A DNA stretch of 64,000 nucleotides from a virus (Duplodnaviria > Heunggongvirae > Uroviricota > Caudoviricetes). The notes beneath the pieces are model-generated. The model had not been told where the DNA came from and made no database searches. It worked only from the letters and a program-made list of their open reading frames with translations. This document shows positions 1,741 to 14,400 of the stretch, piece after piece. The stretch's first letter is position 1. Every line of letters begins with the position of its first letter. The DNA lies in IMG/VR virus record IMGVR_UViG_3300028888_000003; one strand, 5' to 3'. The position numbers and the translations under genes were made by a program.

Positions 1741-1772
1741 TTAAAAGACGGGCAACCGTCTTTTTTATTTTT
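1741..1772 (+). terminator. intrinsic terminator
   Basis: AAAGACGGGCAACCGTCTTTTTTATTTTTT hairpin + T-run. Confidence 0.6.
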
Positions 1773-1829
1773 TAGACGTATTACGTCTAAAAACCGACTT
1801 GACAAATTAAATGAATTGTGGTATAATAT
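1773..1829 (+). promoter_or_regulatory. palindrome TAGACGTATTACGTCTA + TTGACA/TATAAT promoter
   Basis: palindrome 1773-1789; -35 1798-1803; TGGTATAAT -10. Confidence 0.6.
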
Positions 1830-1857
1830 AGACACAATAAAGAAGGAGGTTAATCGA

Positions 1858-2169
1858 ATGATTAATATAAGAACACTGCGCAAACTTAACAACAACGACG
1901 GCTTAACACTTAAAAATGGCAAGCCTATTGTATACAAGACCGGCTATCAGGTAGCTACTGAAGGCGTTGAGGTCACAACAATGGAGGAAGCTATGAAGGC
2001 TATCAAAGCCTATGGTGGCAACTGCGGTATCTGGGTAAGCGAGGGGATATGGTATATAGACTCAAGTCATAGGGAAGCTACTAAGAAGGAAGCTCTTCGA
2101 GTAGGGCGCGAACACAAGCAGATTTCAATTCTTAAGTGGACTACTATGGAACTTGTTTATTGTGATTAA
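1858..2169 (+). CDS. hypothetical protein
   Basis: RBS AAGGAGGT then ATG 1858; longer ORF-track start 1816 is within the -10 region. Confidence 0.6.
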   Translation: MINIRTLRKLNNNDGLTLKNGKPIVYKTGYQVATEGVEVTTMEEAMKAIKAYGGNCGIWVSEGIWYIDSSHREATKKEALRVGREHKQISILKWTTMELVYCD

Positions 2170-2217
2170 ATTATAAAAATTATCGTATAGAATACGGTAA
2201 TTTTATTTTCTATAATT

Positions 2218-2274
2218 TAGACGTCATACGTCTAAAAATAATACTTGACAAATTAAATTTTATATGTTATAATA
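2218..2274 (+). promoter_or_regulatory. palindrome TAGACGTCATACGTCTA + promoter
   Basis: palindrome 2218-2234; TTGACA 2245-2250; TGTTATAAT. Confidence 0.6.
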
Positions 2275-2279
2275 TAGTT

Positions 2280-2368
2280 GTAAGAGAACGAGGGACAGTC
2301 CCGAAGGTTATGCGATGAATTACACATCCGCCGACGGGCGTCACACAGACCTCGCTCTTACTTTTTTT
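2280..2368 (+). ncRNA. candidate promoter-driven small RNA (no ORF)
   Basis: transcript from the 2218 promoter lacks RBS/ORF; 5' GTAAGAGAACGAGG pairs with 3' CCTCGCTCTTAC followed by T7; internal GGGACAGTCCC hairpin. Confidence 0.4.
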
Positions 2369-2377
2369 AGAATTTTT

Positions 2378-2442
2378 TAGACGTAATACGTCTAATTTTT
2401 ATAGATTTTTTTATTGACTTTTTTACTTTATTATGTTATACT
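2378..2442 (+). promoter_or_regulatory. palindrome TAGACGTAATACGTCTA + TTGACT/TGTTATACT promoter
   Basis: palindrome 2378-2394; -35 2413-2418. Confidence 0.5.
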
Positions 2443-2474
2443 TTTATTAGAAAAGTTAAGGGAGGAATTTTCAA

Positions 2475-2576
2475 TGAAAATTACAGACTTTATGGCATCT
2501 CATTTTTATCTTATTATAGGGACTTTTTTCGCATTAATAATGGGAAGTTTAACAATTGATGCCCTTATTCATTAAG
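2475..2576 (+). CDS. small hydrophobic peptide (33 aa)
   Basis: strong RBS AAGGGAGGAATTTTCAATG; MKITDFMASHFYLIIGTFFALIMGSLTIDALIH; below ORF-track size cutoff. Confidence 0.45.
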
Positions 2577-2600
2577 GGCATTTTTCTTTTTCTTAATTTT

Positions 2601-2665
2601 TAGACGTAATACGTCTAAAAAATTTTCCCAAAACTATTGACTTCCCAAAATTATTATGATATAAT
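2601..2665 (+). promoter_or_regulatory. palindrome + TTGACT/TGATATAAT promoter
   Basis: palindrome 2601-2617. Confidence 0.6.
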
Positions 2666-2695
2666 ATAGACACAATAAAGAAAGGAAGTAACAAT

Positions 2696-2935
2696 ATGGA
2701 AAGAGTAACTATTTGTTACAAAACAAAAGAACCGGTTTACTATAACAAAGGAACATCGTATGAAAAAACTTGCGATACTTTTCTTAAAACTCAATGTTTT
2801 ATGGAAAAAGAAGAAGTTGAAAAAATTGTTAAATGGATGAATGAAGAGCATCCCGAAAAAGACAGTCTTGGAAATCCGATTGACTGGGATACAATAGATT
2901 ATTTTTTCGTAAATGTTCAAGAAGAACTTTATTAA
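2696..2935 (+). CDS. hypothetical protein
   Basis: 79-aa ORF, RBS AAAGGAAG, TAA stop. Confidence 0.6.
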   Translation: MERVTICYKTKEPVYYNKGTSYEKTCDTFLKTQCFMEKEEVEKIVKWMNEEHPEKDSLGNPIDWDTIDYFFVNVQEELY

Positions 2936-2991
2936 TAACAATTGTCCGAGAATTTCAAAATGAAATTCTTGGATTTTTTATCAATAGTTTT

Positions 2992-3079
2992 TAGACGTAA
3001 TACGTCTAAAAAATTCTATCTGACGTCTAAAAAAATTCTAAAAAATATTTGACTTTTCCAGAAACTTATGATATAATAC
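2992..3079 (+). promoter_or_regulatory. palindrome + extra half-site + TTGACT/TGATATAAT promoter
   Basis: palindrome 2992-3008, additional TGACGTCTAAAAAA half-site 3021-3034. Confidence 0.6.
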
Positions 3080-3135
3080 TATTGCAATCAAGAAAGATTG
3101 CAAAACAATTTACAAAATCAAGGAGGTTAAAACAA

Positions 3136-3348
3136 ATGAGTTTTAACAAAATAACAGAAGAAGACCGTATTCTCTGGGTTAAGTCAATGAATGAAATAAT
3201 CATAGACGAGGGTGACGAAATACTCTGGTATCGCTGGATTTCAATTGTACCTGATGAACCGCAAGAAGACGATTTCGAGTTCATCGCAAACGACGAAGAA
3301 CTTTGGAATGACTGTTGGAACTTTTTTGAAAAATATTTCTTTTGTTAA
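3136..3348 (+). CDS. hypothetical acidic protein
   Basis: RBS AAGGAGGTTAAAACAAATG; ORF-track start 3049 is inside promoter. Confidence 0.6.
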   Translation: MSFNKITEEDRILWVKSMNEIIIDEGDEILWYRWISIVPDEPQEDDFEFIANDEELWNDCWNFFEKYFFC

Positions 3349-3390
3349 AAGGAGGGACGGGAAACCGTCCCAATTTTTCACAATACTTTT

Positions 3391-3456
3391 TAGACGTAAT
3401 ACGTCTAAAAAATTTTCAGAAAAGTATTGACAAATTAATTGATATATGTTAATATA
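3391..3456 (+). promoter_or_regulatory. palindrome + TTGACA promoter
   Basis: palindrome 3391-3407; -35 3427-3432. Confidence 0.55.
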
Positions 3457-3502
3457 TATATGCAATTAAACAAAACTATAATTTAAAAAGTGAGGTAAAA
3501 TT

Positions 3503-3790
3503 ATGTATTGCAAAATTAGACCGTTAAAATTTATGCCCTATGCCCAGGCGCGCGTTCGTGAGTGGAAATGCGGCGATGTTGATTTAATGAGTTATGAAAC
3601 GCTTGTAATTGCGGTTCGTGACGGCTGGCTTGAATGCACTGGGGTGTATTCAAAAACGACAATGCGTCACATCGGTAACTTTATGCGTGAATTCGGTTTC
3701 GGTGATTATTATACTGCCAGGGATTTATATAAGAATGAACTGAAACTGAATGTTAATACGGGCGAAATTAAAAGCATTCGTGAACCGTAA
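3503..3790 (+). CDS. hypothetical protein, paralog of 1471..1740
   Basis: 95 aa; RBS GTGAGGTAAAATTATG; conserved block with 1471 ORF. Confidence 0.65.
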   Translation: MYCKIRPLKFMPYAQARVREWKCGDVDLMSYETLVIAVRDGWLECTGVYSKTTMRHIGNFMREFGFGDYYTARDLYKNELKLNVNTGEIKSIREP

Positions 3791-3845
3791 AATTAGGGCG
3801 AGATTTATAAAAAAATCTCGCCCGTTATTTTATAGAAAAGTTTTT

Positions 3846-3910
3846 TAGACGTAATACGTCTAAAAAACTTTATAGTTTTTGTTGACAAATTAAAAATAGT
3901 ATGATATAAT
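3846..3910 (+). promoter_or_regulatory. palindrome + TTGACA/TGATATAAT promoter
   Basis: palindrome 3846-3862. Confidence 0.6.
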
Positions 3911-3915
3911 ATAGT

Positions 3916-4040
3916 TGTCAAGGGGGGAGAGATAAGTGAGTTGCTCCTATTGGAAATCAGAAACCTTGTGCACGAGGATAAAGACAGAAACAAGCGTAGG
4001 CGACAAAATCTTCGTAAAAAAGTTGCAAATTTTTTACACT
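3916..4040 (+). ncRNA. candidate small RNA (ORF-less transcript)
   Basis: starts TTGTCAAGGGGGGAGAG, 3' end CTTTCCTCTTGACAAG pairs back and contains the -35 of the next promoter. Confidence 0.4.
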
Positions 4041-4046
4041 TTCCTC

Positions 4047-4076
4047 TTGACAAGCCTAAAAAATTATGATATAATA
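4047..4076 (+). promoter_or_regulatory. TTGACA-17-TGATATAAT promoter (no palindrome)
   Basis: consensus -35/-10. Confidence 0.55.
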
Positions 4077-4081
4077 TAGAT

Positions 4082-4165
4082 GTTGAAAGGTTCCGCTAAG
4101 CTCTTGGTGATTGTGGCGTGATTAAAGCATAGGTAGTTAAGGGGCTATCGCCTTTCAATAAAAGA
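4082..4165 (+). ncRNA. candidate small RNA
   Basis: GTTGAAAGG...CCTTTCAAT closing stem, no ORF, followed by next promoter. Confidence 0.4.
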
Positions 4166-4177
4166 CTTAAAAAACTC

Positions 4178-4206
4178 TTGACAAACTAAAAAATTTATGA
4201 TATAAT
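4178..4206 (+). promoter_or_regulatory. ACTCTTGACAA-17-TATAAT promoter
   Basis: consensus elements. Confidence 0.55.
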
Positions 4207-4232
4207 TTATATAGAAAGTGAGGGAAATCAAA

Positions 4233-4415
4233 ATGAAAATTGCAGAAACCTATAAGTTTGAAAAAATGTATGATAATCTTATTCACAAATACGGATATGA
4301 ACACCCTATTGTAATTCAGTTTGGTTCACTCGCAGAGCGATGGGACAATACAAATTGGAATAAGAAATGTATGGAAATACTCTATCGCACACTTATTGAA
4401 CAAGAAATCTCCTAA
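4233..4415 (+). CDS. hypothetical protein
   Basis: RBS AGTGAGGGAAATCAAAATG; 60 aa. Confidence 0.55.
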   Translation: MKIAETYKFEKMYDNLIHKYGYEHPIVIQFGSLAERWDNTNWNKKCMEILYRTLIEQEIS

Positions 4416-4482
4416 TTGTTTTACCTCCTTTATATATTGTGCGTTAGTCTGGGTTTTGCCCAGACTTTCGCATTGGAGTTTT

Positions 4483-4546
4483 TAGACGTAGTACGTCTAA
4501 TTTAATTTAGAAAAATTATTGACTTTTTACTTATTTATGATATAAT
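4483..4546 (+). promoter_or_regulatory. palindrome TAGACGTAGTACGTCTA + TTGACT promoter
   Basis: palindrome 4483-4499. Confidence 0.6.
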
Positions 4547-4551
4547 ATAAT

Positions 4552-4685
4552 TGTCAAGAGGAAATGACGACCATCGCAAGAAATCTTGTCCGAGTTGCAG
4601 TTAGTAACAGGTGTGTTAGCGAGCACGGAAGCCGACTAATACGGAGAGGACATTTGAAAAATTTTTAAAAACTTTTAAAAAACTC
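4552..4685 (+). ncRNA. candidate small RNA
   Basis: 5' TTGTCAAGAG is exact reverse complement of 3' CTCTTGACAA (which is the -35 of the next promoter); no ORF. Confidence 0.4.
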
Positions 4686-4714
4686 TTGACAAATTAAAAA
4701 AATTATGATATAAT
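4686..4714 (+). promoter_or_regulatory. TTGACA-17-TGATATAAT promoter
   Basis: consensus. Confidence 0.55.
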
Positions 4715-4746
4715 AATTACAGAAATTAAGAAAAGGAGATTTTAAA

Positions 4747-4941
4747 ATGAAAACTTATTATTTAAAATGGTACGATAAAAACGAAGAAAAACTAACAACT
4801 ATACTAATTAATGATAGTCAAAAAAAATTAATTGATTTTATGAGAGAGCATTTTCCAATAGATGATATGCTTTATAATGAAAGTATAAATATAACTATTG
4901 ATAGAGATGAGGAACCATTTTACAACCTTGCTGTTGATTAA
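4747..4941 (+). CDS. hypothetical protein
   Basis: RBS AAAAGGAGATTTTAAAATG; 64 aa. Confidence 0.6.
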   Translation: MKTYYLKWYDKNEEKLTTILINDSQKKLIDFMREHFPIDDMLYNESINITIDRDEEPFYNLAVD

Positions 4942-4990
4942 AAATAAAGTGTAAAGGTTAATATCTTTACACTTTTATTATATTGATTTT

Positions 4991-5056
4991 TAGACGTAAT
5001 ACGTCTAAAAATATTCAGTTTTAATACTTGACTTTTCTAAAAAAATATGATATAAT
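4991..5056 (+). promoter_or_regulatory. palindrome + TTGACT/TGATATAAT promoter
   Basis: palindrome 4991-5007. Confidence 0.6.
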
Positions 5057-5086
5057 GAATTTACAAAAAGAAAAGGAATGATAAAA

Positions 5087-5542
5087 ATGACCGAAATTGA
5101 AAAGGTTTTAGTAAAATTTGTAACTGATATTGACGAAGAACTTTCAGTAACTTTTGAAAAAGACGGATATTATTTTTTAAGTGCTGAAAACTGTATCAAT
5201 ATTGACTTAACAGATTTTGATGACTGCGGTTTTATTCGTCATCTTAAAGAATTTCACAATTGTAATTGGGCTGATAAATTTGATTTACACTTATGGTCAA
5301 TTCTTCACGAAATAGGACATTATGAAACTGAAGATTTACTTGACGAAGATACAGGCGAACAAGAAATTCGTTTTTGGTTATCACTTACTAATAAAGATAT
5401 AAGTCATAATATTAATATTCAAAATGAATATTTTAATCTCACAAGTGAGTATTATGCGACAGATTGGGCAAAAGATTGGATAATAAATCATAAAGAAGAA
5501 GCAAATAAAATTAGTAACTTAATTAAAAATGCGAGAAAATAA
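5087..5542 (+). CDS. hypothetical acidic protein
   Basis: ATG 5087 has proper spacing to AAAAGGAA; ORF-track start 5078 too close to RBS. Confidence 0.55.
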   Translation: MTEIEKVLVKFVTDIDEELSVTFEKDGYYFLSAENCINIDLTDFDDCGFIRHLKEFHNCNWADKFDLHLWSILHEIGHYETEDLLDEDTGEQEIRFWLSLTNKDISHNINIQNEYFNLTSEYYATDWAKDWIINHKEEANKISNLIKNARK

Positions 5543-5568
5543 TCTCGCATTTTGGTTTGCGAGATTTT

Positions 5569-5635
5569 TAGACGTATTACGTCTAAAATTATTATAATTT
5601 AACAATTGACTTTTATATAATTATAGTATATAATA
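5569..5635 (+). promoter_or_regulatory. palindrome + TTGACT promoter
   Basis: palindrome 5569-5585. Confidence 0.55.
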
Positions 5636-5668
5636 TGTATGTAAGAAAGAAAAGAAAGGAAGAAAAAA

Positions 5669-6058
5669 ATGATAATCAAAGCATATCGTATGTTTAGCGA
5701 CCCTTGTCTGATTTATGAAGGAACTAATTACAAAGAGGCAAAAAGAAAAGCCTTTGGACCATTAAAGCAAATAGGGCTTACAGAAAAAAATTATAAGACA
5801 CCCATAATAACTACTACTTGCAAAAGTTATCATAAAGTAATAACTTATTATCCTATCCGTAATCACACCATACAAGCAAAAGAAAATCCAAATTTTTTCT
5901 TTCACTCAATTATTTATTTTGATATTTACTTCAAGGATAAACTTGATGATTATGATATAGGATTAAGAGTCAAAAAAGGTGACCCCTTGGCATACAAATT
6001 AAGAGAAAAAAGAGATATAAAAAATGGAATAACACATTATCCTCGCAAATATTATTAA
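5669..6058 (+). CDS. hypothetical protein
   Basis: RBS GAAAGGAAGAAAAAAATG; 129 aa. Confidence 0.6.
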   Translation: MIIKAYRMFSDPCLIYEGTNYKEAKRKAFGPLKQIGLTEKNYKTPIITTTCKSYHKVITYYPIRNHTIQAKENPNFFFHSIIYFDIYFKDKLDDYDIGLRVKKGDPLAYKLREKRDIKNGITHYPRKYY

Positions 6059-6095
6059 AAGTCCGTTAAATCGGACTTTTATTTTTTATTTATTT

Positions 6096-6160
6096 TAGAC
6101 GTTATACGTCTAAAAAGTTTTCTAAAAACTATTGACAGATTGAAATTATTATGCTATAAT
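6096..6160 (+). promoter_or_regulatory. palindrome TAGACGTTATACGTCTA + TTGACA/TGCTATAAT promoter
   Basis: palindrome 6096-6112; terminator hairpin 6061-6090 just upstream. Confidence 0.6.
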
Positions 6161-6174
6161 AAAATCACAATAAA

Positions 6175-6200
6175 GGTTGCGACTTACCGCAGAGAAAGGA
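6175..6200 (+). promoter_or_regulatory. conserved 5' leader hairpin (stem TGCG/CGCA, loop ACTTACC) + purine-rich RBS
   Basis: GGTTGCGACTTACCGCAGAGAAAGG; same element at 7337, 11364, 15621 with compensatory stem changes. Confidence 0.5.
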
Positions 6201-6208
6201 AAAATATT

Positions 6209-7195
6209 ATGAAAATTACAAACACCCTTGACCTCACCAAAAAGAAAACGGGCGATTGGTCAATCAACGGAAAATTAGTTTCTGTATCTGAAGAGGAAGA
6301 CAATATTCTTATGCAGATTCACAACCGCTACCGCAATATGTATGAGAGCAACAGAGAGGCTGATTTTGCTACAATAAGTGGTATTCTTTCAACTGACCAC
6401 CCCTCTGTCGCACAGATACTCGGTATCGTGACCGAAGCTGTTGCCGAAGCCGTTGAAGCCGAAGCACCAAGAGAACTTACCGCAGAGGAAAAGAAAACGG
6501 CTACACTTGAAGCCATTAAGAAACTTATTTCTTTCTTTACAGAATTTGACTTTGAGCCGAACTACCGTTTTGTAAACACCCTTGCTCTGTCCCTTAAACA
6601 GGGTGAGAAAAAAGCAAAAGATTATATCACAAACTACTTTGAACTTACTGATAGTCCATTCAAAAAAGAAGTCGTGCAGAAAATGAAATCGGCAGAATTT
6701 AAGAGTATTCTCAATGATATTGCTCTTACAGAGCCGACCAAGACCATTAACAATCGTTTTAAACTCTACTATGGCTCACAGGGAACAGGCAAAACTACAA
6801 TCGGTATGAAAGAAACCGATAAGAGATGTATCGTATGTAACTCTTCAATGCTCCCTGCCGACCTTATGGAAGATTTTGTGTTCGTTGACGGAAAGGCAAC
6901 CTTTAAACCCTCATCACTTTGGCGGTGTATGACAGAGGGAAAGCCGATTGTCTTGGACGAAATCAATCTTCTGCCCTTTGATAGTCTGCGTTTCTTACAA
7001 GGCGTTCTTGACGGAAAGGCAAGTTTTGAATACAAGGGCAATACAGTTGAAATCAAAGAGGGTTTCAAAATTATCGGTACTATGAACCTTACTGTTAATG
7101 GTATGACTTACGGTTTGCCCGAACCTCTCGTTGATAGATGTGAGGAAACAAAGAAATTCAAACTGACCGCAAATGACCTCGTAAAAGCAATTTAA
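6209..7195 (+). CDS. MoxR-like AAA+ ATPase
   Basis: Walker A GSQGTGKT, Walker B IVLDEIN, sensor region; start at ATG after AGAGAAAGGAAAAATATT (ORF-track start 6140 is in the leader). Confidence 0.7.
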   Translation: MKITNTLDLTKKKTGDWSINGKLVSVSEEEDNILMQIHNRYRNMYESNREADFATISGILSTDHPSVAQILGIVTEAVAEAVEAEAPRELTAEEKKTATLEAIKKLISFFTEFDFEPNYRFVNTLALSLKQGEKKAKDYITNYFELTDSPFKKEVVQKMKSAEFKSILNDIALTEPTKTINNRFKLYYGSQGTGKTTIGMKETDKRCIVCNSSMLPADLMEDFVFVDGKATFKPSSLWRCMTEGKPIVLDEINLLPFDSLRFLQGVLDGKASFEYKGNTVEIKEGFKIIGTMNLTVNGMTYGLPEPLVDRCEETKKFKLTANDLVKAI

Positions 7196-7257
7196 GAAAA
7201 TTATATAACAGAAAAGAGGGGAGCAATCCCCTCCTTTCTCTTTCCCAAAAAAAGAAT

Positions 7258-7322
7258 TAGACGTCATACGTCTAAAAACTTTTCTATAAAATATTGACAA
7301 ACCACAAAACTTATGATATAAT
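7258..7322 (+). promoter_or_regulatory. palindrome TAGACGTCATACGTCTA + TTGACA/TGATATAAT promoter
   Basis: palindrome 7258-7274. Confidence 0.6.
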
Positions 7323-7336
7323 GTAGTTACAAATTA

Positions 7337-7362
7337 AGGGTTGCGACCTACCGCAGAGAAAG
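7337..7362 (+). promoter_or_regulatory. conserved leader hairpin (loop ACCTACC)
   Basis: GGTTGCGACCTACCGCAGAGAAAGGAAA. Confidence 0.5.
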
Positions 7363-7372
7363 GAAACATATT

Positions 7373-8923
7373 ATGGAAATTACAAAAGGTGAAATCAAGG
7401 AAATTCTTGATACACTCCCTATCGGTTACTATGCCGACAGACCTATTGCCGTAAACATAAGTGAAACAGAGCCAACAAGTTTTTATAACCTTGAAAAAGA
7501 CGAAATCACTTTTGCTTATAGCAACATTGAACAAGCACTCGCAAATGTAGAAGATTTTAACAGAGAAACGGCTATAAGAAGTGTTCTCTATCACGAATTA
7601 AGTCACGCAATTCTCACTCCTCAAAATCTCATACTCACCTCTAAAACGGCAGATATGGTCAATATTTTTGAAGATGAAAGAATTGAAACCTTGCTCAAAG
7701 ACTTTTATCACGATACTGACTTTAAAGGTTTAGTAAAAGCCCTTAATGGTGATTTTACTCCGCAAGATAGTATGGATGCTTTTTTTCAAGTAGTTAGACA
7801 GAGAAAAGGCAAGCCCAAATTTCTTAAAAAAGTAAATGAAATCATTTACAAATATGCTATGCTTGGTCATAATTGTGACGGACACGGCTGTTGGCAAGAT
7901 GGCAGATGGACAATCAATCAGTATGTAGAGGATATTGAAACCCTCTATGACGAAATAGCAAAGGACTTTAATGCTAATCCGCAAGACTATAAAAATCCTC
8001 TCTCAATATCTAATAGTGGCAATGAGAATAGCGATTTTCTTGATGAAAAATCGTGGATAAAAAATGCTATGGAATGCGGTTATTCAAAAGAAGAAGCCGA
8101 AAAACTCTTTGAAGAACTCAAAAAGCATATTGACGGAAATGAAAACGACAACGACAATGAGTATTGCGAAGCCAAAGAGGGCGAAGGCGATACCGAGTGC
8201 AATGGTGAGCAAGACAAAGACCACAATGGTTTTGGTAAACTAATTATTAAAAAAGGTTTTGGCGGTGAAACCATTTCAAACTTGACCGATAAACTTTCCG
8301 CAATTATCTCAATATTTAATAAGAAAAATGCAAGCGGTAGTGCTTTCACAAGTTATAGTGGTGTTATCAATCCTAAATTGTGCGGTAATAATGACTATCG
8401 TTTCTTTGAGAGAAAAGCCGAAGCAAGAGGAAACAATCGTTTTGGTAGTTTGCACCTTACACTTTGGATAGATACAAGCGGTAGTTTTTATACCAATAAA
8501 AACAAAACAAATGCTCTCATAAAATCACTTGAACTCATTGAAAAGAAAAACCCCAATTTTTCCCTTGACGTTGTTCATTGTTCTTGCGGTCAAAGGTTAA
8601 TGCCTAAAAACAATAGGTTTATCGACCCCGATGGTGGCAACCGCCTTACAAACGAGGTTTTTGACCTTTACAGACAGTTACAGAAAGGCAACACATACAA
8701 TTATAATATATTCCTCTTTGACGGCGAGGCTATGCCTGACAGGAATAATGACACAAATACTGCCTTTAACAAAGTTGATTTTAATAACTGTCTATTCATT
8801 TCCGATTATGATAACGAGAGATATTTGAAAACTCTCAAATCGGCACAAGTTATTCTCACAAGCAATTATGTAAATGAACTTTATGATAATGTGTTTACCG
8901 CATTACACAAAGCATTTAGATAA
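7373..8923 (+). CDS. VWA-domain protein with N-terminal HExxH metallopeptidase-like motif
   Basis: LYHELSHAIL (HExxH); MIDAS-like WIDTSGSF; 516 aa; genomic partner of the MoxR-like ATPase. Confidence 0.65.
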   Translation: MEITKGEIKEILDTLPIGYYADRPIAVNISETEPTSFYNLEKDEITFAYSNIEQALANVEDFNRETAIRSVLYHELSHAILTPQNLILTSKTADMVNIFEDERIETLLKDFYHDTDFKGLVKALNGDFTPQDSMDAFFQVVRQRKGKPKFLKKVNEIIYKYAMLGHNCDGHGCWQDGRWTINQYVEDIETLYDEIAKDFNANPQDYKNPLSISNSGNENSDFLDEKSWIKNAMECGYSKEEAEKLFEELKKHIDGNENDNDNEYCEAKEGEGDTECNGEQDKDHNGFGKLIIKKGFGGETISNLTDKLSAIISIFNKKNASGSAFTSYSGVINPKLCGNNDYRFFERKAEARGNNRFGSLHLTLWIDTSGSFYTNKNKTNALIKSLELIEKKNPNFSLDVVHCSCGQRLMPKNNRFIDPDGGNRLTNEVFDLYRQLQKGNTYNYNIFLFDGEAMPDRNNDTNTAFNKVDFNNCLFISDYDNERYLKTLKSAQVILTSNYVNELYDNVFTALHKAFR

Positions 8924-8975
8924 CAGAGAAAAGTGTAAAGGGGAAACCCTTTACACTCTTTTTCTATTACAAATT

Positions 8976-9041
8976 TAGACGTAATACGTCTAAAAAATAC
9001 CATAAAAGTATCTTGACAAATACTTTATAATGTGTTATACT
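8976..9041 (+). promoter_or_regulatory. palindrome + TTGACA promoter
   Basis: palindrome 8976-8992. Confidence 0.55.
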
Positions 9042-9084
9042 AATCTTGTAATCAAGGAGATAATAAAAGAAAGGAAAGAATTAA

Positions 9085-9558
9085 ATGAAACTGTTAATAA
9101 TCTTTATTGTCTTAAATGTGGTCAATGTTATAATGCAGACCGTCAAATCAATAGCAACTCTTAAATGTGGTAAGGTAGTAGCAAGTCTTATCAATGCTAT
9201 AACCTACGGACTTTATACTGTTGTAATTGTATATATGGTTTGCGAATTACCTTTATGGCTGAAAGCCCTCATAATCGGCTTAGCCAATCTTTTCGGTGTT
9301 TACTTTGTTAAATTATTTGAAGAAAAAGTAAGAAAAGATAAACTTTGGAAAGTTGAATGTAATATCAATTCCGAAAATTTCACACAATTTTATGATACAA
9401 TTCGAGGAATAGGCATTCCGTTTAATTTTAATCCGACAAACAATGGTTATATTACTGTAAATCTTTTCTGCGAAACACAAAAAGAAAGTCACACAATAAA
9501 AGAAATCTTAAATAAATTTGATATTAAGTATTTTGTTACTGAAACAAAAACTCTTTGA
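9085..9558 (+). CDS. membrane protein (3 predicted TM helices) with soluble C-terminal domain
   Basis: hydrophobic N-terminal 90 aa; RBS AAAGGAAAG. Confidence 0.55.
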   Translation: MKLLIIFIVLNVVNVIMQTVKSIATLKCGKVVASLINAITYGLYTVVIVYMVCELPLWLKALIIGLANLFGVYFVKLFEEKVRKDKLWKVECNINSENFTQFYDTIRGIGIPFNFNPTNNGYITVNLFCETQKESHTIKEILNKFDIKYFVTETKTL

Positions 9559-9605
9559 TTACACAAGAAAGGTCGGGCAACCGACTTTTTCTTGTTATAG
9601 AATTT

Positions 9606-9680
9606 TAGACGTATTACGTCTAAAAATATTTAAAATAAATAGAAAAAAGTATTGACTTTAAAAATATTATATGATATAAT
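9606..9680 (+). promoter_or_regulatory. palindrome + TTGACT/TGATATAAT promoter
   Basis: palindrome 9606-9622. Confidence 0.6.
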
Positions 9681-9717
9681 AAAGATGTTCCAAAGGGGCA
9701 GAAAGGAAGGAAAAAAT

Positions 9718-10053
9718 ATGAAACTTGCAAGTGCAAACAAAATTCGGGAAACCGAAATCCGCAAAATTTTTGAGTTCTACGGCGGTGCTGAGAATGATTG
9801 CGGTATGATTGCCTCAAACTCGTTTAATATTCCTATTGTTGCAGAGAACGGAGAAGAAGGTTGGCTTGAAGTTGTCGCAAAAGTAACTAAAGATAACGGT
9901 GATGACGGCTACCTTAAAAGACAGGCTTATGAAATCAATCTTGCGGACAAGGCAAAAAGGAAAGCCGAAGTCGAAAAAAAGAAAGCTAAAAAAATAGCCG
10001 CCGATGAAAAGCGGAGAGCAGAGCTCAAAGCAAAAGCAGAGCCGACCGCATAA
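9718..10053 (+). CDS. hypothetical protein with K/A/E-rich tail; paralog of 14803..15147
   Basis: shared IxSNSFNxPIVAxNGEEGW block; RBS AGAAAGGAAGGAAAAAATATG. Confidence 0.65.
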   Translation: MKLASANKIRETEIRKIFEFYGGAENDCGMIASNSFNIPIVAENGEEGWLEVVAKVTKDNGDDGYLKRQAYEINLADKAKRKAEVEKKKAKKIAADEKRRAELKAKAEPTA

Positions 10054-10097
10054 GACAAAGAGTGGAGGAAACTCCACTCCATCTTTATCCATAATTT

Positions 10098-10174
10098 TAG
10101 ACGTAGTACGTCTAAAAACCATTAAAAAAATTTTTTTAAAAGGTATTGACAAATAAATAATACTATGATATAAT
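10098..10174 (+). promoter_or_regulatory. palindrome TAGACGTAGTACGTCTA + TTGACA/TGATATAAT promoter
   Basis: palindrome 10098-10114; leader hairpin CTTGTCAAGTAGGGAG...CTCCCTA...GACAAG follows. Confidence 0.6.
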
Positions 10175-10239
10175 TATCTTGTCAAGTAGGGAGAGCGATG
10201 GCAAACTCCCTATAATATAAGACAAGAAAGGAAAATCGT

Positions 10240-11109
10240 ATGAATTACGAAAAAAAGGTTGACCGCAGAAAAAAGTATTATTTAATACTTGATTGCGAAA
10301 CCGCAACACTCCCTTGTGCCGAAAGTTATGGTGCAGAGGAAAAGAAAATAATAGCAATAGCAAAACCCCTTATCTATGATTTAGGTTGGCAGATTATTGA
10401 CCGCAAAGGAAAAGTGTATAGCAGAAAATCTTATTTGATTTCTGAAATATTTTCCGTTCCCTCAATTTTCAATACCGCCTATTACGCAAGCAAAAGACCT
10501 ATCTATCTTGACCGCCTTGCAAAAAACGAAACAGTATTGACCGATTGGAAAACGGCTACGGCAGACCTCGTTACCGATATGGAAAAGGTCGAAAGCATAG
10601 GTGCTTATAATTCTATGTTTGATTTCAAAAAAGCAATACCCTTTACAGAGTTGTATATCAACAAACTGTATTCGCAAGACTATTATGAGTGGGAAAAAAT
10701 GCAAACCGCAATTTGTGAGCATATTGCAAAAGGCAATTACTCCACAAAAAGCAGTAAAAACTTTGAACACGATTTGTTCCGTTTTCGTGGCAAGGAATAC
10801 CCTCTCTTTGATATATGGGGATTGAGTTGTCAGCACATACTTAATAATGACAAGTATAAGCAGACTTGTCTTGACAATTCGTGGCGGACCGCAAGTGGTA
10901 AGTATTTCAAAACCTCTGCTGAAACTTGTTATCGCTTTTTCAAAGGCAACAATGAATTTGAAGAAAGCCACACCGCCATTGACGATAGCACGATTGAAAG
11001 TGAACTGTTCACCGAAATTCTCAAAAGAACAAATAACAATTTTGCTATGGGCATAACTTATTTTCCGTTCCGTATTCTCGGCAAGGTTGAGGAATTTTCC
11101 TCGCCTTGA
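10240..11109 (+). CDS. DnaQ-like 3'-5' exonuclease (DEDDh)
   Basis: Exo I LILDCETA, Exo II YNSMFDF, Exo III HTAIDDS. Confidence 0.7.
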   Translation: MNYEKKVDRRKKYYLILDCETATLPCAESYGAEEKKIIAIAKPLIYDLGWQIIDRKGKVYSRKSYLISEIFSVPSIFNTAYYASKRPIYLDRLAKNETVLTDWKTATADLVTDMEKVESIGAYNSMFDFKKAIPFTELYINKLYSQDYYEWEKMQTAICEHIAKGNYSTKSSKNFEHDLFRFRGKEYPLFDIWGLSCQHILNNDKYKQTCLDNSWRTASGKYFKTSAETCYRFFKGNNEFEESHTAIDDSTIESELFTEILKRTNNNFAMGITYFPFRILGKVEEFSSP

Positions 11110-11161
11110 CCGAAAGGGTGTAAAGGAGAAATCCTTTACACCCATTTTCCTATTATAAATT

Positions 11162-11227
11162 TAGACGTAATACGTCTAAAAAATATTCAAAAAAAGTATT
11201 GACTTTTTAGTCACAATCGTTTATAAT
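11162..11227 (+). promoter_or_regulatory. palindrome + TTGACT promoter
   Basis: palindrome 11162-11178. Confidence 0.55.
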
Positions 11228-11285
11228 AAGGGTGTAATCAAGAGAGAGCAAAAAAACAAAAAATAAAAAAAGTTGAGAAAACCCC

Positions 11286-11314
11286 TTGACAAATTAAAAA
11301 TTGTATGCTATAAT
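11286..11314 (+). promoter_or_regulatory. CCCCTTGACAA-17-TGCTATAAT promoter
   Basis: consensus. Confidence 0.55.
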
Positions 11315-11363
11315 ATAAATGTAATCAAGAGGAACGCAAACCTCTTGTTGCAATAAAAAATAG

Positions 11364-11384
11364 GGTGGTGACCGACACCATAGC
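11364..11384 (+). promoter_or_regulatory. leader hairpin variant (TGGTG ACCGA CACCA)
   Basis: loop ACCGAC resembles ACCTAC elements; followed by AGAAAGGAAAG RBS. Confidence 0.4.
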
Positions 11385-11407
11385 CAAAAGGCAGAAAGGA
11401 AAGCACT

Positions 11408-11800
11408 ATGACAAGAAAAGACTACAATCTCGGAGTAATCGCAATCCTCAACGGCAACGAGGTAGCAGAGGACACTCGCAACGAAATCCTTGCCTATGCT
11501 GAAAGCGATAATCAGAAAATCGCAGACCGCAACGCAAAGAGAGCCTCCACTCCCTCAAAGGCACAGAAAGAAAATGAGCCTCTTTACCCTGCTATCCTTG
11601 CTACCCTCAACGCAGATACTCCCACTCTCTCTACCGCAGTTGCTACTACCACAGGTCTGAAAACGCAGAAAGTTACAGGTCTGCTTGGTAATCTTCTGAA
11701 AGAAGGCAAAGTAACAAAGGTATCTGTGCCTGTCAAGGGCAAGGGTAAACAGACAGGTTGGTTGCTTGTTATGAATGATACTGACTCCCTTGTAGACTAA
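11408..11800 (+). CDS. hypothetical protein; paralog of 15654..15995
   Basis: shared NAKRA../P(L/I)Y(P/D)A(I/L)(L/A)A.L motif and C-terminal VKGKG region. Confidence 0.6.
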   Translation: MTRKDYNLGVIAILNGNEVAEDTRNEILAYAESDNQKIADRNAKRASTPSKAQKENEPLYPAILATLNADTPTLSTAVATTTGLKTQKVTGLLGNLLKEGKVTKVSVPVKGKGKQTGWLLVMNDTDSLVD

Positions 11801-11881
11801 CAGATTTTTATCGGTAAGACTACTAAAGTAACCTTTGGGTGTAAAGGGGAAACCCTTTACACCTTTTACTTAAAATAAATT

Positions 11882-11946
11882 TAGACGTAATACGTCTAAA
11901 AACTTTTATATAAACTATTGACAAATTAAAAACTGTATGCTATAAT
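11882..11946 (+). promoter_or_regulatory. palindrome + TTGACA/TGCTATAAT promoter
   Basis: palindrome 11882-11898. Confidence 0.6.
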
Positions 11947-11966
11947 GTATACAAGAGGTGAAGAAA

Positions 11967-12101
11967 ATGACAAAGAAACGAATGAAAGCCGAAAACAATA
12001 AAAAAAGAAGTTCTTGGTTTGGTGTCAATCCGCAAATGAAAGTTATTCCTAATAAGAAAAAAGAAAACGAAAAAAGAAAATGCAGAAGAAAGGAGTTTTA
12101 A
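11967..12101 (+). CDS. small basic peptide (44 aa)
   Basis: RBS AGAGGTGAAGAAAATG; K/R-rich. Confidence 0.4.
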   Translation: MTKKRMKAENNKKRSSWFGVNPQMKVIPNKKKENEKRKCRRKEF

Positions 12102-12103
12102 TT

Positions 12104-12289
12104 ATGTATTCAATACACTTTATTTATGATGATATTTATGACATAATAAATTTTGCGAATTTTCACGAAATGATGGATTTCGTTGTTGATTTGGCAAAGG
12201 TTGATACTAAATGTCAGTTTATTATCCGTAATGAAATAGGTGAAACAATTTATAAGTATATCAATCTTGAAAAAAGAGAGGAGTATTAA
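12104..12289 (+). CDS. hypothetical protein
   Basis: RBS GAAAGGAGTTTTAATTATG; ORF-track start 12080 overlaps upstream peptide. Confidence 0.55.
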   Translation: MYSIHFIYDDIYDIINFANFHEMMDFVVDLAKVDTKCQFIIRNEIGETIYKYINLEKREEY

Positions 12290-12290
12290 A

Positions 12291-12479
12291 ATGACAGTAA
12301 AAGATTTAATTAAAGTTCTTGAAACCTACCCACAAGAAGCAACTGTTTTTTATGAAGAGGTTAGTAATGAACTTGAAAAAACAGACATTTATGTAGAAAC
12401 CATTGAAGAAATATTAAAAACTATACCTATGGAACTTATTGATAGGAACTGTCGCAACGGCATAGTCATTTTTCCTTAA
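12291..12479 (+). CDS. hypothetical acidic protein
   Basis: RBS AGAGAGGAGTATTAAAATG. Confidence 0.55.
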   Translation: MTVKDLIKVLETYPQEATVFYEEVSNELEKTDIYVETIEEILKTIPMELIDRNCRNGIVIFP

Positions 12480-12512
12480 AATTAAAAGTCCAATAAAATG
12501 GACTTTTACCCC

Positions 12513-12541
12513 TTGACAAATCAAAAATTCTATGGTATAAT
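12513..12541 (+). promoter_or_regulatory. CCCCTTGACAA-17-TGGTATAAT promoter
   Basis: consensus; preceded by terminator hairpin 12482-12510. Confidence 0.55.
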
Positions 12542-12596
12542 AATTACAGAAATTAAGAAATATTGTATACATACCAGAATGAAAGGATGAATATAA

Positions 12597-12971
12597 ATGA
12601 CAGTAGAAACAAAATATATTGCATATGATAGTAAAGTATTTGATGACGATGATAAATGTGCAGAATATGAATGGCATAATATTGTAGTTCCAGATTTATT
12701 TAACAAATATATTGAAATGTATTTTAGAGAAGAATCTAAAAGAGATTTATCTAATTATACTATTGCTGACTTCTATGATGATTTGATTAATTGTGAATAT
12801 ATGGTAATAAAAGAAAATATACCAGATGATAGTATTATTTTAGATTATGTAGTGTCAAGATATGGCATTCGGATACCAGTAAAAAGAGGTAAATATAGAT
12901 ATGATATTTATTCTGCTAATGGTTGGGAGAAATATGAATATGTTGAACCTGTTAAGTGTATATTTAACTAA
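12597..12971 (+). CDS. hypothetical protein
   Basis: 124 aa, RBS GAAAGGATG. Confidence 0.55.
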   Translation: MTVETKYIAYDSKVFDDDDKCAEYEWHNIVVPDLFNKYIEMYFREESKRDLSNYTIADFYDDLINCEYMVIKENIPDDSIILDYVVSRYGIRIPVKRGKYRYDIYSANGWEKYEYVEPVKCIFN

Positions 12972-13040
12972 TGGAGGTGATACTAAATGAATATGCCGAT
13001 TTTTATGAAATTATCGAGGTATTAGAAAGGAAAAAACAAA

Positions 13041-13286
13041 ATGAAAACTATTTTTATTATCTATTGTGTTACAGTAATTATCTCATTACTTAACGAGTGT
13101 ATCGGATTTTTTGCAGTTAGAGAAATGGCAAAAAAGGGTACAGAATTTAAGAGAAGTAAAATGCCGAAAACTATCGCAACATTCAGGTTATTTTTTGTTG
13201 CATTAATCCCCATTTTTAATGTTATAATTACTCTTTTAGTCTTAATCTGCTTTAACAAAGTAATAAACTCTTTTATTGAAAATTAA
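13041..13286 (+). CDS. small membrane protein (2 TM)
   Basis: hydrophobic helices; RBS AGAAAGGAAAAAACAAAATG. Confidence 0.55.
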   Translation: MKTIFIIYCVTVIISLLNECIGFFAVREMAKKGTEFKRSKMPKTIATFRLFFVALIPIFNVIITLLVLICFNKVINSFIEN

Positions 13287-13324
13287 AAGTCCGTTTTAAC
13301 GGGCTTTTATTTTACTATAGTTTT

Positions 13325-13391
13325 AGACGTATTACGTCTAAATTTATTTAAAATAAATACTTGACTTTTTATTAAAATTGATATATAATAT
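13325..13391 (+). promoter_or_regulatory. palindrome + TTGACT/TATATAAT promoter
   Basis: palindrome 13325-13341. Confidence 0.6.
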
Positions 13392-13396
13392 AGATG

Positions 13397-13535
13397 TTGA
13401 AAGGAGAAAATTACCACGGATTCGGTGTGATGACTTTCAACTACCATATCAGACGGAAGGCTTTAAATCCCACCAAAAACCAGCGTGGGTGGTAAGGAAA
13501 TCAAGAGGTAGTAAAATTGAAAAATTTTGAAAAAA
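13397..13535 (+). ncRNA. candidate small RNA
   Basis: GTTGAAAGG...CTTTCAAC stem; CCCACCAAAAACCAGCGTGGGTGG hairpin; no ORF. Confidence 0.4.
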
Positions 13536-13539
13536 AGTA

Positions 13540-13568
13540 TTGACAATCCTTTCGTGGTATGGTATAAT
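13540..13568 (+). promoter_or_regulatory. TTGACA-17-TGGTATAAT promoter
   Basis: consensus. Confidence 0.55.
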
Positions 13569-13573
13569 ATAAG

Positions 13574-13705
13574 TGTCAAGAGAGGTCGGCAGAGTGCGAC
13601 TTTGCTCCCATAGAGGATAGAGTTCTCACAAAGATAAGTCTGCATAACATCGAGTAAGAGGAACTAAAGGACAGTTGAAAATTTTGCAGAGATTTTCAAA
13701 ACTCT
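13574..13705 (+). ncRNA. candidate small RNA
   Basis: 5' GTCAAGAGAG complementary to 3' CTCTCTTGAC (next -35); no ORF. Confidence 0.4.
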
Positions 13706-13706
13706 C

Positions 13707-13735
13707 TTGACATTTATAAAACAATATGATATAAT
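13707..13735 (+). promoter_or_regulatory. TTGACA-17-TGATATAAT promoter
   Basis: consensus. Confidence 0.55.
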
Positions 13736-13767
13736 AATTACAGAAATTAAGAAAAGGAGATTTTAAA

Positions 13768-13977
13768 ATGAAAGTTCATGTATTTAGAAAAAACATTGTA
13801 ACATTTTCAGAAATTGAATCTGGAGAAATTTTTGAATTTGAAGACAATTTTTATATGAAAATAGAAACAAAAGGGTCGAGATATAATGCAGTCAGCATAT
13901 ACACAGGAAGCATTTGTATGTTTGATGATGATGAAGAAGTCACAAGAGTTAAATCAGCACTTAATATTGAAATGTAA
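13768..13977 (+). CDS. hypothetical protein
   Basis: 69 aa; RBS AAAAGGAGATTTTAAAATG (same leader as 4747 gene). Confidence 0.6.
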   Translation: MKVHVFRKNIVTFSEIESGEIFEFEDNFYMKIETKGSRYNAVSIYTGSICMFDDDEEVTRVKSALNIEM

Positions 13978-13995
13978 ATTTTAGGGAGGAATTAA

Positions 13996-14166
13996 AATGC
14001 TTGAATATTTATGGGTAGTTATTTGTGATGAACAAATTATTTTTGTATCGCCAAATATTAAAGATTGCATTCAATATCAAAATGCCTTCTATGAAAATAC
14101 AGGAGAAGATACAGAAATAGAACAATTTTTCTACAAGAAAAAACTTCAATGGTATCTTGAAGATTA
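13996..14166 (+). CDS. hypothetical protein (56 aa)
   Basis: RBS GGGAGGAATTAAAATG; below ORF-track cutoff. Confidence 0.45.
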
Positions 14167-14200
14167 AAAGTCCGATAAATCGGACTTTTTATTTTATATA
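14163..14200. terminator. bidirectional intrinsic terminator
   Basis: AAAAGTCCGATAAATCGGACTTTTTTATTTT (A-run/hairpin/T-run). Confidence 0.6.
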
Positions 14201-14205
14201 TTTTT

Positions 14206-14222
14206 TAGACGTCATACGTCTA
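14206..14222. promoter_or_regulatory. palindrome TAGACGTCATACGTCTA without downstream + promoter; extra half-site 14256-14268
   Basis: sits inside the transcript of the minus-strand promoter at 14288-14316. Confidence 0.5.
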
Positions 14223-14287
14223 ATTCCAAAAAGTCAAATTTTCTCACCAAATTTTTAGACGTCACCAGAAAAAGGTATCCCTTCCCC

Positions 14288-14316
14288 ATTATACCATATT
14301 CAAACAAAAAAGTCAA
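14288..14316 (-). promoter_or_regulatory. minus-strand TTGACT-17-TATAAT promoter
   Basis: rc: CTTGACTTTTTTGTTTGAATATGGTATAATGGGG. Confidence 0.5.
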
Positions 14317-14339
14317 GAGAAAAATTATAAATAAATTGT

Positions 14340-14400
14340 GAACTTTATTACATTACCATACTACCATATTACCACACTATCATATCACCGCATACCACTA
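14340..14400. repeat. seven tandem degenerate 8-mers (CCAYAYTA), iteron-like
   Basis: ccatacta ccatatta ccacacta tcatatca ccgcatac cactacac cacttcac. Confidence 0.6.

Follow-up and report, generated by a model that had tools for sequence, protein, structure and literature searches.

Introduction

Stem-loops at the 5' terminus and 5'-proximal tracts resembling a Shine-Dalgarno (SD) sequence stabilise messenger RNA (mRNA), and a paired 5' terminus guards against 5'-end-dependent decay. Emory in 1992 and Hambraeus in 2002 reportedly described mRNA stabilisation by such 5'-terminal stem-loops or SD-like tracts, and Hue is said to have studied mRNA stabilisation in 1995 with early RNA of phage SP82. 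In phage T7, three strong early promoters (A1, A2 and A3) stand in tandem about 125 nucleotides (nt) apart, and the early RNAs of both T7 and SP82 are processed by ribonuclease (RNase) III. Here we analyse a 64,000-nt stretch of DNA from a virus of the Caudoviricetes (IMG/VR record IMGVR_UViG_3300028888_000003; hereafter the window), in which several near-consensus early promoters are followed by a further promoter instead of a gene, and we focus on the units lying between such promoters, whose transcripts are predicted to begin with a sequence able to pair with RNA copied from, or from just upstream of, the -35 box of the promoter that comes next.

PMC3997798 has these three studies of mRNA stabilisers among its references. 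The host-takeover module of the Bacillus phage SPO1 (Herelleviridae) is a region of ~12-13 kb in which small early genes each have strong promoters of the sigma-A type and a strong ribosome-binding site (PMC6873191), and the promoter-early stem-loop (PeSL) cassettes of T4-type phages place a conserved stem-loop and an early promoter before many small variable genes, whose order changes from relative to relative with the junctions falling at these motifs (PMC4122927). In our window, positions 1385-14223 form the early region of a large uncultured ruminant-gut phage, with ~27 near-consensus sigma-70-type promoters, all on the + strand and carrying TG-extended -10 boxes, and with 20 copies of the palindrome TTAGACGT-N3-ACGTCTAA (also written TTAGACGTAATACGTCTAA) where 0.02 are expected. 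The usual order of an early cassette is a hairpin terminator, a copy of the palindrome, a promoter, then one or a few small genes with strong SD sites. Each primary promoter has a palindrome copy upstream and secondary promoters have none. Tandem early arrays, understood as at least two strong host-type promoters in the same orientation, <200 nt apart, with no gene between them and placed before early genes, occur at 3882/4047/4178, 4519/4686, 11199/11286, 13361/13540/13707 and 15144/15329/15531, their activity being predicted.

Pairing of the transcript start with the following promoter

The initial annotation of this stretch had proposed chains of the form promoter, small RNA without an open reading frame (ORF), promoter, gene, in which the transcript start is complementary to the next -35 box. 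Both the chain and the complementarity are real, and statistics across the phage family show that the pairing is selected. On comparative sequence evidence, it is an RNA-level feature in its own right, more than the by-product of two motifs. Within the window, CTCTTGACAA (with up to one mismatch) occurs 18 times against 4.8 expected; on the reverse strand, copies at 3915, 4551 and 13573 follow, at a distance of 4-5 nt, the -10 box of a promoter matching the consensus at 12/12 or 11/12 positions, and forward copies at the next -35 box (4044, 4683 and 13704) face them. In the units that we call u2, u4 and u6, the 5' arm GTCAAGAG... thereby pairs with ...CTCTTGAC at the -35 box of the next promoter.

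Related loci were gathered by a palindrome-pattern scan of IMG/VR (70 loci), by scans of IMG/VR and metagenomes for a MoxR-like ATPase (31 more) and by a scan of genome collections (30), the last being phage-like contigs binned into metagenome-assembled genomes, many of them labelled Clostridia, Eubacteriales or Bacillota. The resulting total of about 131-133 loci, mostly from gut-type metagenomes and several of these from ruminants, covers ~1.15 Mb of early regions; the pairing statistics (promoter scan, unit classes and permutation) are based on the window and the first 101 loci. The closest relative, L073, has an ATPase 83% identical in protein on a locus of 2.9 kb, and GenBank phages gave no match by DNA or by ATPase protein.

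The motif GTCAAG opens the predicted transcripts of 19 of the 87 promoters that run into another promoter versus 6 of 342 other early promoters, an enrichment summarised as 16-fold (p = 8e-10). A C-rich flank on the next -35 box is found in 16/19 units with 5' GTCAAG versus 16/68 without it (p = 2e-6). Secondary promoters as a whole (100 tandem versus 350 palindrome-bearing primary promoters in the scan) carry C at -1 and -3 of the -35 box in 67% and 51% of cases, versus 33% and 23% of primary promoters, and are enriched in TTGACAA. The non-redundant inter-promoter units number 73, and 18 of them belong to class A, with GTCAAG at the 5' and CTTGAC at the 3' end. Beyond this core, class A stems are extended by a mean of 3.3 contiguous base pairs (bp) versus 2.4 bp in permuted arm pairs (p = 1e-4), through extensions that vary from unit to unit (AGAGAG/CUCUCU, AGGGA/UCCCU, AGGGAAG/CUUCCCU); the permutation test over all 73 unit clusters, most of which lack class A arms, gave p = 0.05. 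With stem limits set by Watson-Crick pairs alone, the internal mismatches are 8 G.U versus 1 A.C (p = 0.04), an excess that marks the stems as pairing of the + strand RNA rather than as a DNA palindrome. Together, the matched extensions, the G.U bias, the GTCAAG enrichment and the co-occurring C-rich flank argue that the ability of a transcript start to pair with the next -35 box has been selected at the RNA level throughout the family.

The conserved element is the terminal helix, of which the overlap with the -35 box is one variant. Class B units of relatives have UUGUUC.../...GAACAA arms that end upstream of a tract resembling an UP element, 18-30 nt before the -35 box, a range that includes unit u3 of the window. 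The interior is dispensable: one class B unit (in L090) has had it deleted and has kept the closing stem.

The initial annotation had listed six units for the window, here u1 to u6, all said to start after a consensus promoter and to be closed by a stem between their ends. A near-consensus promoter does precede 6/6, and the seventh base after the -10 box, the expected +1, is a G in every case; the stems of u1, u2, u3, u4 and u6 all begin with this G, and thus at the very 5' end if the predicted start sites are the true ones. In these five the closing stem is kept in both the minimum-free-energy and the centroid fold of the whole unit (z = -3.7, -2.8, -2.4, -3.6 and -3.2), and u5 has a local hairpin instead. 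The further statement that the 3' arm overlaps the next -35 box applies to half of the units (u2, u4 and u6); the arm of u3 ends 18 nt upstream, that of u1 is followed by seven U residues and u5 is unclosed.

Short and long leaders

Pairing of the 5' end extends beyond the inter-promoter units. In short leaders the unpaired purine-rich start is the SD itself, as in ACACAAUAAAGAAGGAGG followed after ~7 nt by AUG. Among 344 non-redundant early transcripts, the pairing probability of nucleotides 1-6 is 0.09-0.11 for leaders of <35 nt and 0.58 for those of at least 50 nt. For the 94 non-redundant long leaders, this value of 0.58 compares with 0.36 in controls in which the rest of the RNA was shuffled and 0.31 in controls with the start shifted by 15 nt (p ~1e-9), so that 5'-end pairing is above chance and specific to long leaders, as is expected of a 5' stabiliser. 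In the window, the long leaders starting at 3084, 10181, 11321 and 15566 have 5' hairpins over the purine tract, with z = -2.6, -3.3, -4.3 and -2.2. This gives a rule for the early transcripts of an uncultured ruminant-gut phage clade: short leaders use a 5'-proximal SD, and long leaders and promoter stacks pair it from the first nucleotide, the next promoter's -35 box being the partner in one variant of the rule.

The units of the window

All features described here lie on the + strand. The promoter of u1 (2245-2273; TTGACA-17-TATAAT with a TG-extended -10 box) has a palindrome at 2217-2235 upstream. The unit itself (2280-2368) is a stand-alone ORF-less RNA of ~85 nt whose stem, 2280-2293/2349-2361, opens with the G of the predicted +1 and leads directly into U7 at 2362-2368 (z = -3.69). 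Its interior alone gives z = -2.1, and u1 has no homologue in the related loci. It is a predicted separate, lineage-specific structured RNA running from promoter to terminator.

The first tandem array starts with a primary promoter at 3882-3910, whose palindrome (3845-3863) lies 18 nt upstream. In the leader u2 (3917-4051), positions 3917-3929 pair with 4039-4051 over 13-15 bp, including three G.U pairs (z = -2.81), and the 3' arm includes the TTGAC of the -35 box at 4047-4052. The secondary promoter at 4047-4075 has no palindrome and carries a CCTC flank upstream of its -35 box. It is followed by the leader u3 (4082-4159), closed by 4082-4090/4151-4159 (GUUGAAAGG/CCUUUCAAU; z = -2.36), and by a third promoter (4178-4206), which has a short leader and drives a gene of 60 amino acids (aa) at 4233-4415. 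The next array opens with a primary promoter at 4519-4546 (palindrome 4482-4500). In its leader u4 (4553-4690; z = -3.63), 4553-4560 (GUCAAGAG) pairs with 4683-4690 (CUCUUGAC) in the -35 box of the secondary promoter P4686 (4686-4714), which drives a 64-aa gene at 4747-4941. The only part of u4 that matches other phages is its A/T-rich UP-like tract at 4650-4682, common to promoters in L004, L055 and L078, and its 5' arm matches the 3' arm of u2 over 14 nt, better than it matches its own.

The right-hand array starts with a primary promoter at 13361-13389 (palindrome 13323-13341), followed by the leader u5 (13396-13539), which has a local 5' hairpin only (13396-13441), no long-range closure and z = -0.85. 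A secondary promoter found by the promoter scan (13540-13568) precedes the leader u6 (13575-13711; z = -3.18), in which 13575-13584 (GUCAAGAGAG) pairs with 13702-13711 (CUCUCUUGAC) in the -35 box of the third promoter, P13707 (13707-13735), and P13707 drives the genes 13768-13977 and 13997-14167. Two arrays were absent from the earlier list of units. The first, at 11199-11407, consists of P11199, a 52-nt A-rich unit (11234-11285), P11286 with a CCCC flank, and a leader (11321-11407) with the 5'-terminal hairpin CAAGAGG/CCUCUUG (z = -4.27), after which comes the 130-aa gene 11408-11800. The second (15144-15653) has promoters at 15144, 15329 and 15531, with -35 boxes TTGATT/TTGAAA. Its two ORF-less units (15179-15328 and 15364-15530) and its long leader (15566-15653) all have, at their start, a local 5' hairpin that covers the purine tract. 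The promoters of the arrays within 1385-14223 match the consensus at 11-12/12 positions and those of 15144-15531 at 10-11/12. A search of the genes downstream of the arrays against PHROG assigned no function.

Each unit ends in ~30 nt of A/T-rich sequence that occupies, relative to the next promoter, the place of an UP element and lies outside any small-RNA body. A terminator scan found none at the ends of u2-u6, the stems of u2, u3, u4 and u6 running into A-rich promoter spacers, and u1 alone, with a G+C-rich hairpin and a U-tract, qualifies as an intrinsic terminator. An antisense promoter with TTGTCA as its reverse -35 box was dropped, the -10 matches at the right distance (TATTTT) being weak.

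Promoter modules recur and move within the family. The 33-nt leader AATTACAGAAATTAAGAAAAGGAGATTTTAAAATG is identical before two unrelated genes, 4747 and 13768, downstream of P4686 and P13707 (4715-4752 and 13736-13773), and is partly common to P12513 (12542-12560); since the promoter spacers differ, duplication or conversion of a promoter/leader module is suggested. The order of cassettes is changed in L073, with junctions at palindrome-plus-promoter modules (window 4380-4500 versus L073 1-240, and 11918-12290 versus 180-560), and the ATPase promoter, primary in the window, is secondary and stands behind an extra unit in L073.

Proposed mechanism

We give a probability of roughly 0.5 to the reading that u2-u6, and with them the units at 11234 and 15179-15530, are not separate genes but leaders that arise when tandem early promoters are read through, and that their 5'-terminal stem, itself under selection, would stabilise or insulate them. 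The initial annotation had itself named long 5' untranslated regions (UTRs), produced by read-through from upstream promoters, as the outcome that would refute its small RNAs; for u2-u6 such UTRs are the most likely reading, and the 5'-terminal closure is itself a selected feature that goes beyond a plain long 5' UTR.

RNA polymerase from the upstream, palindrome-bearing promoter would read across the next promoter into the gene, with no terminator between them. The long transcript would open with a purine-rich SD-like tract (GUCAAGAGG...), the one that serves as ribosome-binding site in single-promoter cassettes, and in the tandem setting this tract would be paired from its first nucleotide with a downstream pyrimidine tract. 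The partner would be, in class A (u2, u4 and u6), the RNA copy of the next -35 box with 3-7 nt of its upstream flank (CCUCUUGAC), and in u3 and class B a segment just upstream of the UP-like tract, long gene leaders using a local hairpin; the expected outcome is a base-paired 5' terminus around a variable spacer. Such a stem may shield the long leader from RppH, RNase J1 or RNase E-type enzymes, whose attack depends on the 5' end. It may further hide the orphan SD and insulate the leader against the ribosome-binding site that lies downstream. The invariant -35 box would be the cheapest and most portable partner, and universal arms would keep the closure through cassette shuffling, which fits the identical leaders of P4686 and P13707, the changed order in L073 and the 14-nt match between the arms of u4 and u2. 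If the stem does stabilise or insulate, nature here offers a portable way of stacking strong promoters that neither destabilises the mRNA nor leaves an orphan ribosome-binding site exposed, which is of relevance to studies of phage gene expression and to synthetic biology in Firmicutes.

Several points weigh against this reading. The G.U/A.C comparison covers a small number of positions (9), the phylogenetic independence of the units is incomplete, and homologous unit pairs in relatives are too similar to display classical compensatory changes. Some units have no closure, namely u5, 11234-11285 and L073 1455-1530, the last with a CCTC flank and no matching 5' arm. A short local hairpin would suffice to protect a 5' end, and the spacers of 60-140 nt, purine-rich and of ~47% G+C, are left unexplained by the model. 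Relatives also place real stable RNAs behind the same promoter type (transfer RNAs (tRNAs), tRNA-like sequences and a conserved ORF-less RNA of ~200 nt), which means that the slot can hold functional RNAs. Finally, the start sites, the read-through, and the half-lives with any stabilising or insulating effect are predictions.

Unit interiors and alternative explanations

The initial annotation had suggested that the small RNAs could be decoys, antisense regulators or anti-defence RNAs. It is possible, if unlikely, that the units are discrete functional RNAs of this kind, or sponges, cut from the read-through RNA at the AU-rich spacer of the promoter. In favour of this, u1 does run from a promoter to a terminator and folds stably, the window units are richer in G+C and purines than the surrounding intergenic DNA, relatives have the stable RNAs just mentioned, and a closed stem would guard both ends of a released RNA. 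The interiors of u2-u6 speak against it. No homologue of any unit interior was found in the about 131-133 related loci, the interiors are mutually dissimilar, and when u2, u4, u6 and units of L002 are aligned, just the promoter, 5' arm, UP-like tract and 3' arm align. Taken alone, the interiors of u2-u6 fold like their dinucleotide shuffles (z = +0.45, +0.88, -1.5, -0.46 and +0.13). Over 2000-14500, Rfam 15 (which includes tRNA, 6S, Y-RNA-like RNAs, riboswitches and phage RNAs) gave nothing at the gathering score and, at E up to 5, sub-threshold matches that all lie outside the unit bodies, and ARAGORN found no tRNA. The search for antisense targets within the window returned no more than chance matches of 10-13 nt and the arms or A/T tracts that units have in common. 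Class A interiors in relatives range from A-rich loops of 25-35 nt to about 100 nt, and the enrichment of SD motifs inside units is weak (z = 2.7) and comes largely from the conserved 5' arm. Matched variation is confined to the terminal stem, and homologues with covarying pairs in the body, as a conserved structured noncoding RNA (ncRNA) would have, were not found in the related loci. Added to the missing terminators of u2-u6 and the L090 deletion, these results leave the proposed RNA functions without support. They also call for caution in predicting phage small RNAs, as the folding z-scores here stem from one terminal helix and from UP-element A/T hairpins, with no structured body.

Related phages do hold ORF-less RNAs. 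An early unit of ~200 nt with a G+C-rich terminator (GGGGCGGGC...CCCGCC followed by a U run) is conserved in at least eight of them (nhmmer E 1e-19 to 1e-60), at L026 9847-10035, L028 366-572 and L066 8061-8264, all on the - strand, and also in L005, L027, L030, L033 and L057. It is absent from the window, has no Rfam family and is a candidate new phage ncRNA. In L071 (2276-2960), early-type tandem promoters drive a tRNA-like unit (2456-2596, with the T-arm GGTTCGACTCC), a non-coding stretch and tRNA-Lys (2869-2944). In L089 (16912-17500), a promoter at ~16912 is followed by ~480 nt of non-coding G+C-rich sequence leading into tRNA-Met (17425-17498); an identity of this long stretch with ROOL or GOLLD was considered and rejected, Rfam giving no match.

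A variant of the small-RNA idea, which we also regard as unlikely, takes the closing stem as a modular promoter-linker, whose universal adaptors, GUCAAGAGG at the 5' end and CCUCUUGAC of the next -35 box at the 3' end, would allow arbitrary sequences to be inserted between stacked early promoters. Cleavage in the AU-rich spacer would release the insert as an end-closed small RNA, and the fast-evolving interiors would be lineage-specific effectors. If true, it would explain the G+C-rich interiors of ~100 nt in the window and the tRNA-like RNAs in the slots of relatives, and the released RNAs would be exonuclease-resistant and serve, for example, as sponges that bind host RNases, ribosomes or defence proteins able to sense RNA.

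It is similarly doubtful that the closing stems are RNase III-type processing sites which split the leader from the mRNA, as in the early RNAs of T7 and SP82, and leave the mRNA with a newly made, defined 5' end. In its long-range pairing of 5' with 3' sequences each stem resembles the processing stalks of ribosomal RNA (rRNA), and the pairing is selected at the RNA level. Classical substrates are mostly uninterrupted helices of ~20 bp, or two helical turns, and the closing stems have 8-17 bp, mostly 9-13; they also begin at the predicted +1, leaving no 5' flank to remove, and local hairpins of 6-8 bp hold the same position in long gene leaders.

Somewhat less probable still is an action of the stem on transcription, by which it would pause or dislodge the upstream polymerase or coordinate it with the one at the downstream promoter, balancing regulated and unregulated promoters. 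With its 3' arm ending at -30 of the next promoter, the stem would close while the polymerase stands over that promoter, and the palindrome is found on the first promoter of each array alone. No U-tract follows the stems, however, and the 3' arms of u3 and class B lie upstream of the UP-like tract; this position, and the local hairpins of gene leaders, indicate that placement over the -35 box is not needed.

The initial annotation had also likened the terminal inverted repeats to duplicated promoter modules of the type of miniature inverted-repeat transposable elements (MITEs). A purely DNA-level origin, as a by-product of module duplication or recombination or as MITE-like termini without RNA function, is improbable. 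Promoter/leader modules have indeed been duplicated and shuffled, as seen in the identical 33-nt leaders, the cassette order of L073 and the arm of u4 that fits u2 better than its own unit. A MITE would combine inverted repeats with target-site duplications and homologous copies; the inverted termini here are just 8-17 nt long, the flanking 4-mers differ (ATAA/ATTA, ATAG/GCCT, ATAA/TTAT), so that there is no target-site duplication, and no homologous interior copies exist among the units. The 8:1 preference for G.U, the extensions matched within units and the restriction of the 5' motif to promoters running into another promoter also speak for RNA.

That the units encode very small proteins is highly improbable. 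The initial annotation had them free of ORFs and ribosome-binding sites; u3 and u6 do lack such ORFs, and of the ORFs that exist, some behind SD-like runs (a 47-codon GTG ORF in u2, 34 codons in u4 and 33 in u5), all run through promoters or have an SD spacing of 2 nt (that of u2 crosses the next -35 and -10 boxes, and in u4 the SD lies 2 nt from the ATG). The closing stem also ties up the SD-like tract, and most of the corresponding units in relatives lack a comparable SD-preceded ORF, with 0-38 codons in stem-closed units.

Promoter palindrome and neighbouring features

In the window and related loci, the distance between the 17-nt core of the palindrome and the -35 box is quantised, with classes at 9-10 nt (202 cases; 223 at 8-11), 19-20 nt (65), 29-30 nt (21), 40-43 nt (15) and 51-52 nt (13). 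Each step is one helical turn, which suggests a dimeric DNA-binding protein sitting on one face of the DNA relative to RNA polymerase. Relatives have variants in which both half-sites are changed symmetrically, such as TGGACGG-N3-CCGTCCA in L073 (120-140, 765-785 and 1372-1392) and (A/G)GATGT-N3-ACATCC in L089 (16248-16266, 16892-16910 and 17643-17661), which looks like switching of operator specificity, or like a conserved hairpin. The helical-phase spacing and the lineage-specific half-site changes point to a putative regulator of early promoters.

The MoxR-like ATPase gene (6209-7195) and a neighbouring gene of 516 aa have a common leader, GGTTGCGAC(T/C)TACCGCAGAGAAAGGAAA, at 6165-6208 and 7328-7372, which blastn also finds upstream of the homologues in at least nine related loci and which may be a translational operator or a hairpin. 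Just beyond the palindrome block, 14240-14620 contains an ACCA/CCAT-rich tract (14340-14415), several (G)AGCTGCG motifs (14430-14540) and a (TA)n run (14577-14604); comparable clusters of GAGCTGCG stand at both ends of the early block of L002 (181-300 and 8690-8900). These odd repeats may be signs of the boundary of a terminal repeat, of a packaging signal or of an origin. Outside the early block, the window has eight tRNAs, seven in a cluster at 21170-22629 (Gln, Trp, Gly, Asn, Phe, Glu and Met) and tRNA-Leu at 48450-48526 on the - strand, as well as an Rnl1-type RNA ligase gene (29201-30322) and a PhoH-like gene (46488-47321) on the strand opposite to the early block.

Comparison with known systems

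The units share with the known 5' stabilisers (E. coli ompA and papA, B. subtilis aprE, the SP82 polypurine tract and ermC) a paired 5' terminus, a purine-rich SD-like start, or both; here these features are found on long leaders and are absent from those whose real ribosome-binding site is no more than ~15 nt from the 5' end. They differ in that the 3' partner, transcribed from the next -35 box, can be separated from the start by 60-140 nt, that the element is placed between tandem promoters and that the effect on stability is predicted. As in T7 A1-A3, groups of two or three near-consensus host-type promoters, pointing the same way and spaced by 130-180 nt of gene-free DNA, precede early genes, but here there are several arrays inside the early region and the palindrome marks only the first promoter of each. 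To our knowledge, the T7 sequence has no complementarity between the A1 start and the -35 region of A2. In a limited literature search, no account came up of a transcript start under selection for pairing with the -35 box of the following promoter, and we know of none.

The RNase III stems of T7, SP82 and rRNA precursors are likewise helices formed, in the phages within early transcripts, by sequences flanking a long RNA segment; those of our units are shorter, start from the predicted +1 and lack a conserved internal-loop signature. The SPO1 module has a similar early-region layout, and its early leaders too, when checked here, start with short G+C-rich hairpins, but it has no tandem promoters <270 nt apart, no TTAGACGT palindrome and no long-range closure, and no sequence relationship between it and this phage was detectable. 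The likeness to PeSL cassettes concerns the palindrome-plus-promoter module, not the inter-promoter units, and extends to the cassette order, which differs between the window and L073 with junctions at the modules; in contrast to PeSL, the palindrome here is in helical phase with the -35 box, suggesting protein binding over a role in termination or recombination alone. The arrangement thus lies outside Rfam families, MITEs, terminators (u1 excepted) and classical RNase III sites. By analogy, it would work like a 5'-terminal stem-loop leader joined to T7-type tandem early promoters, within a modular early region of the PeSL or SPO1 kind.

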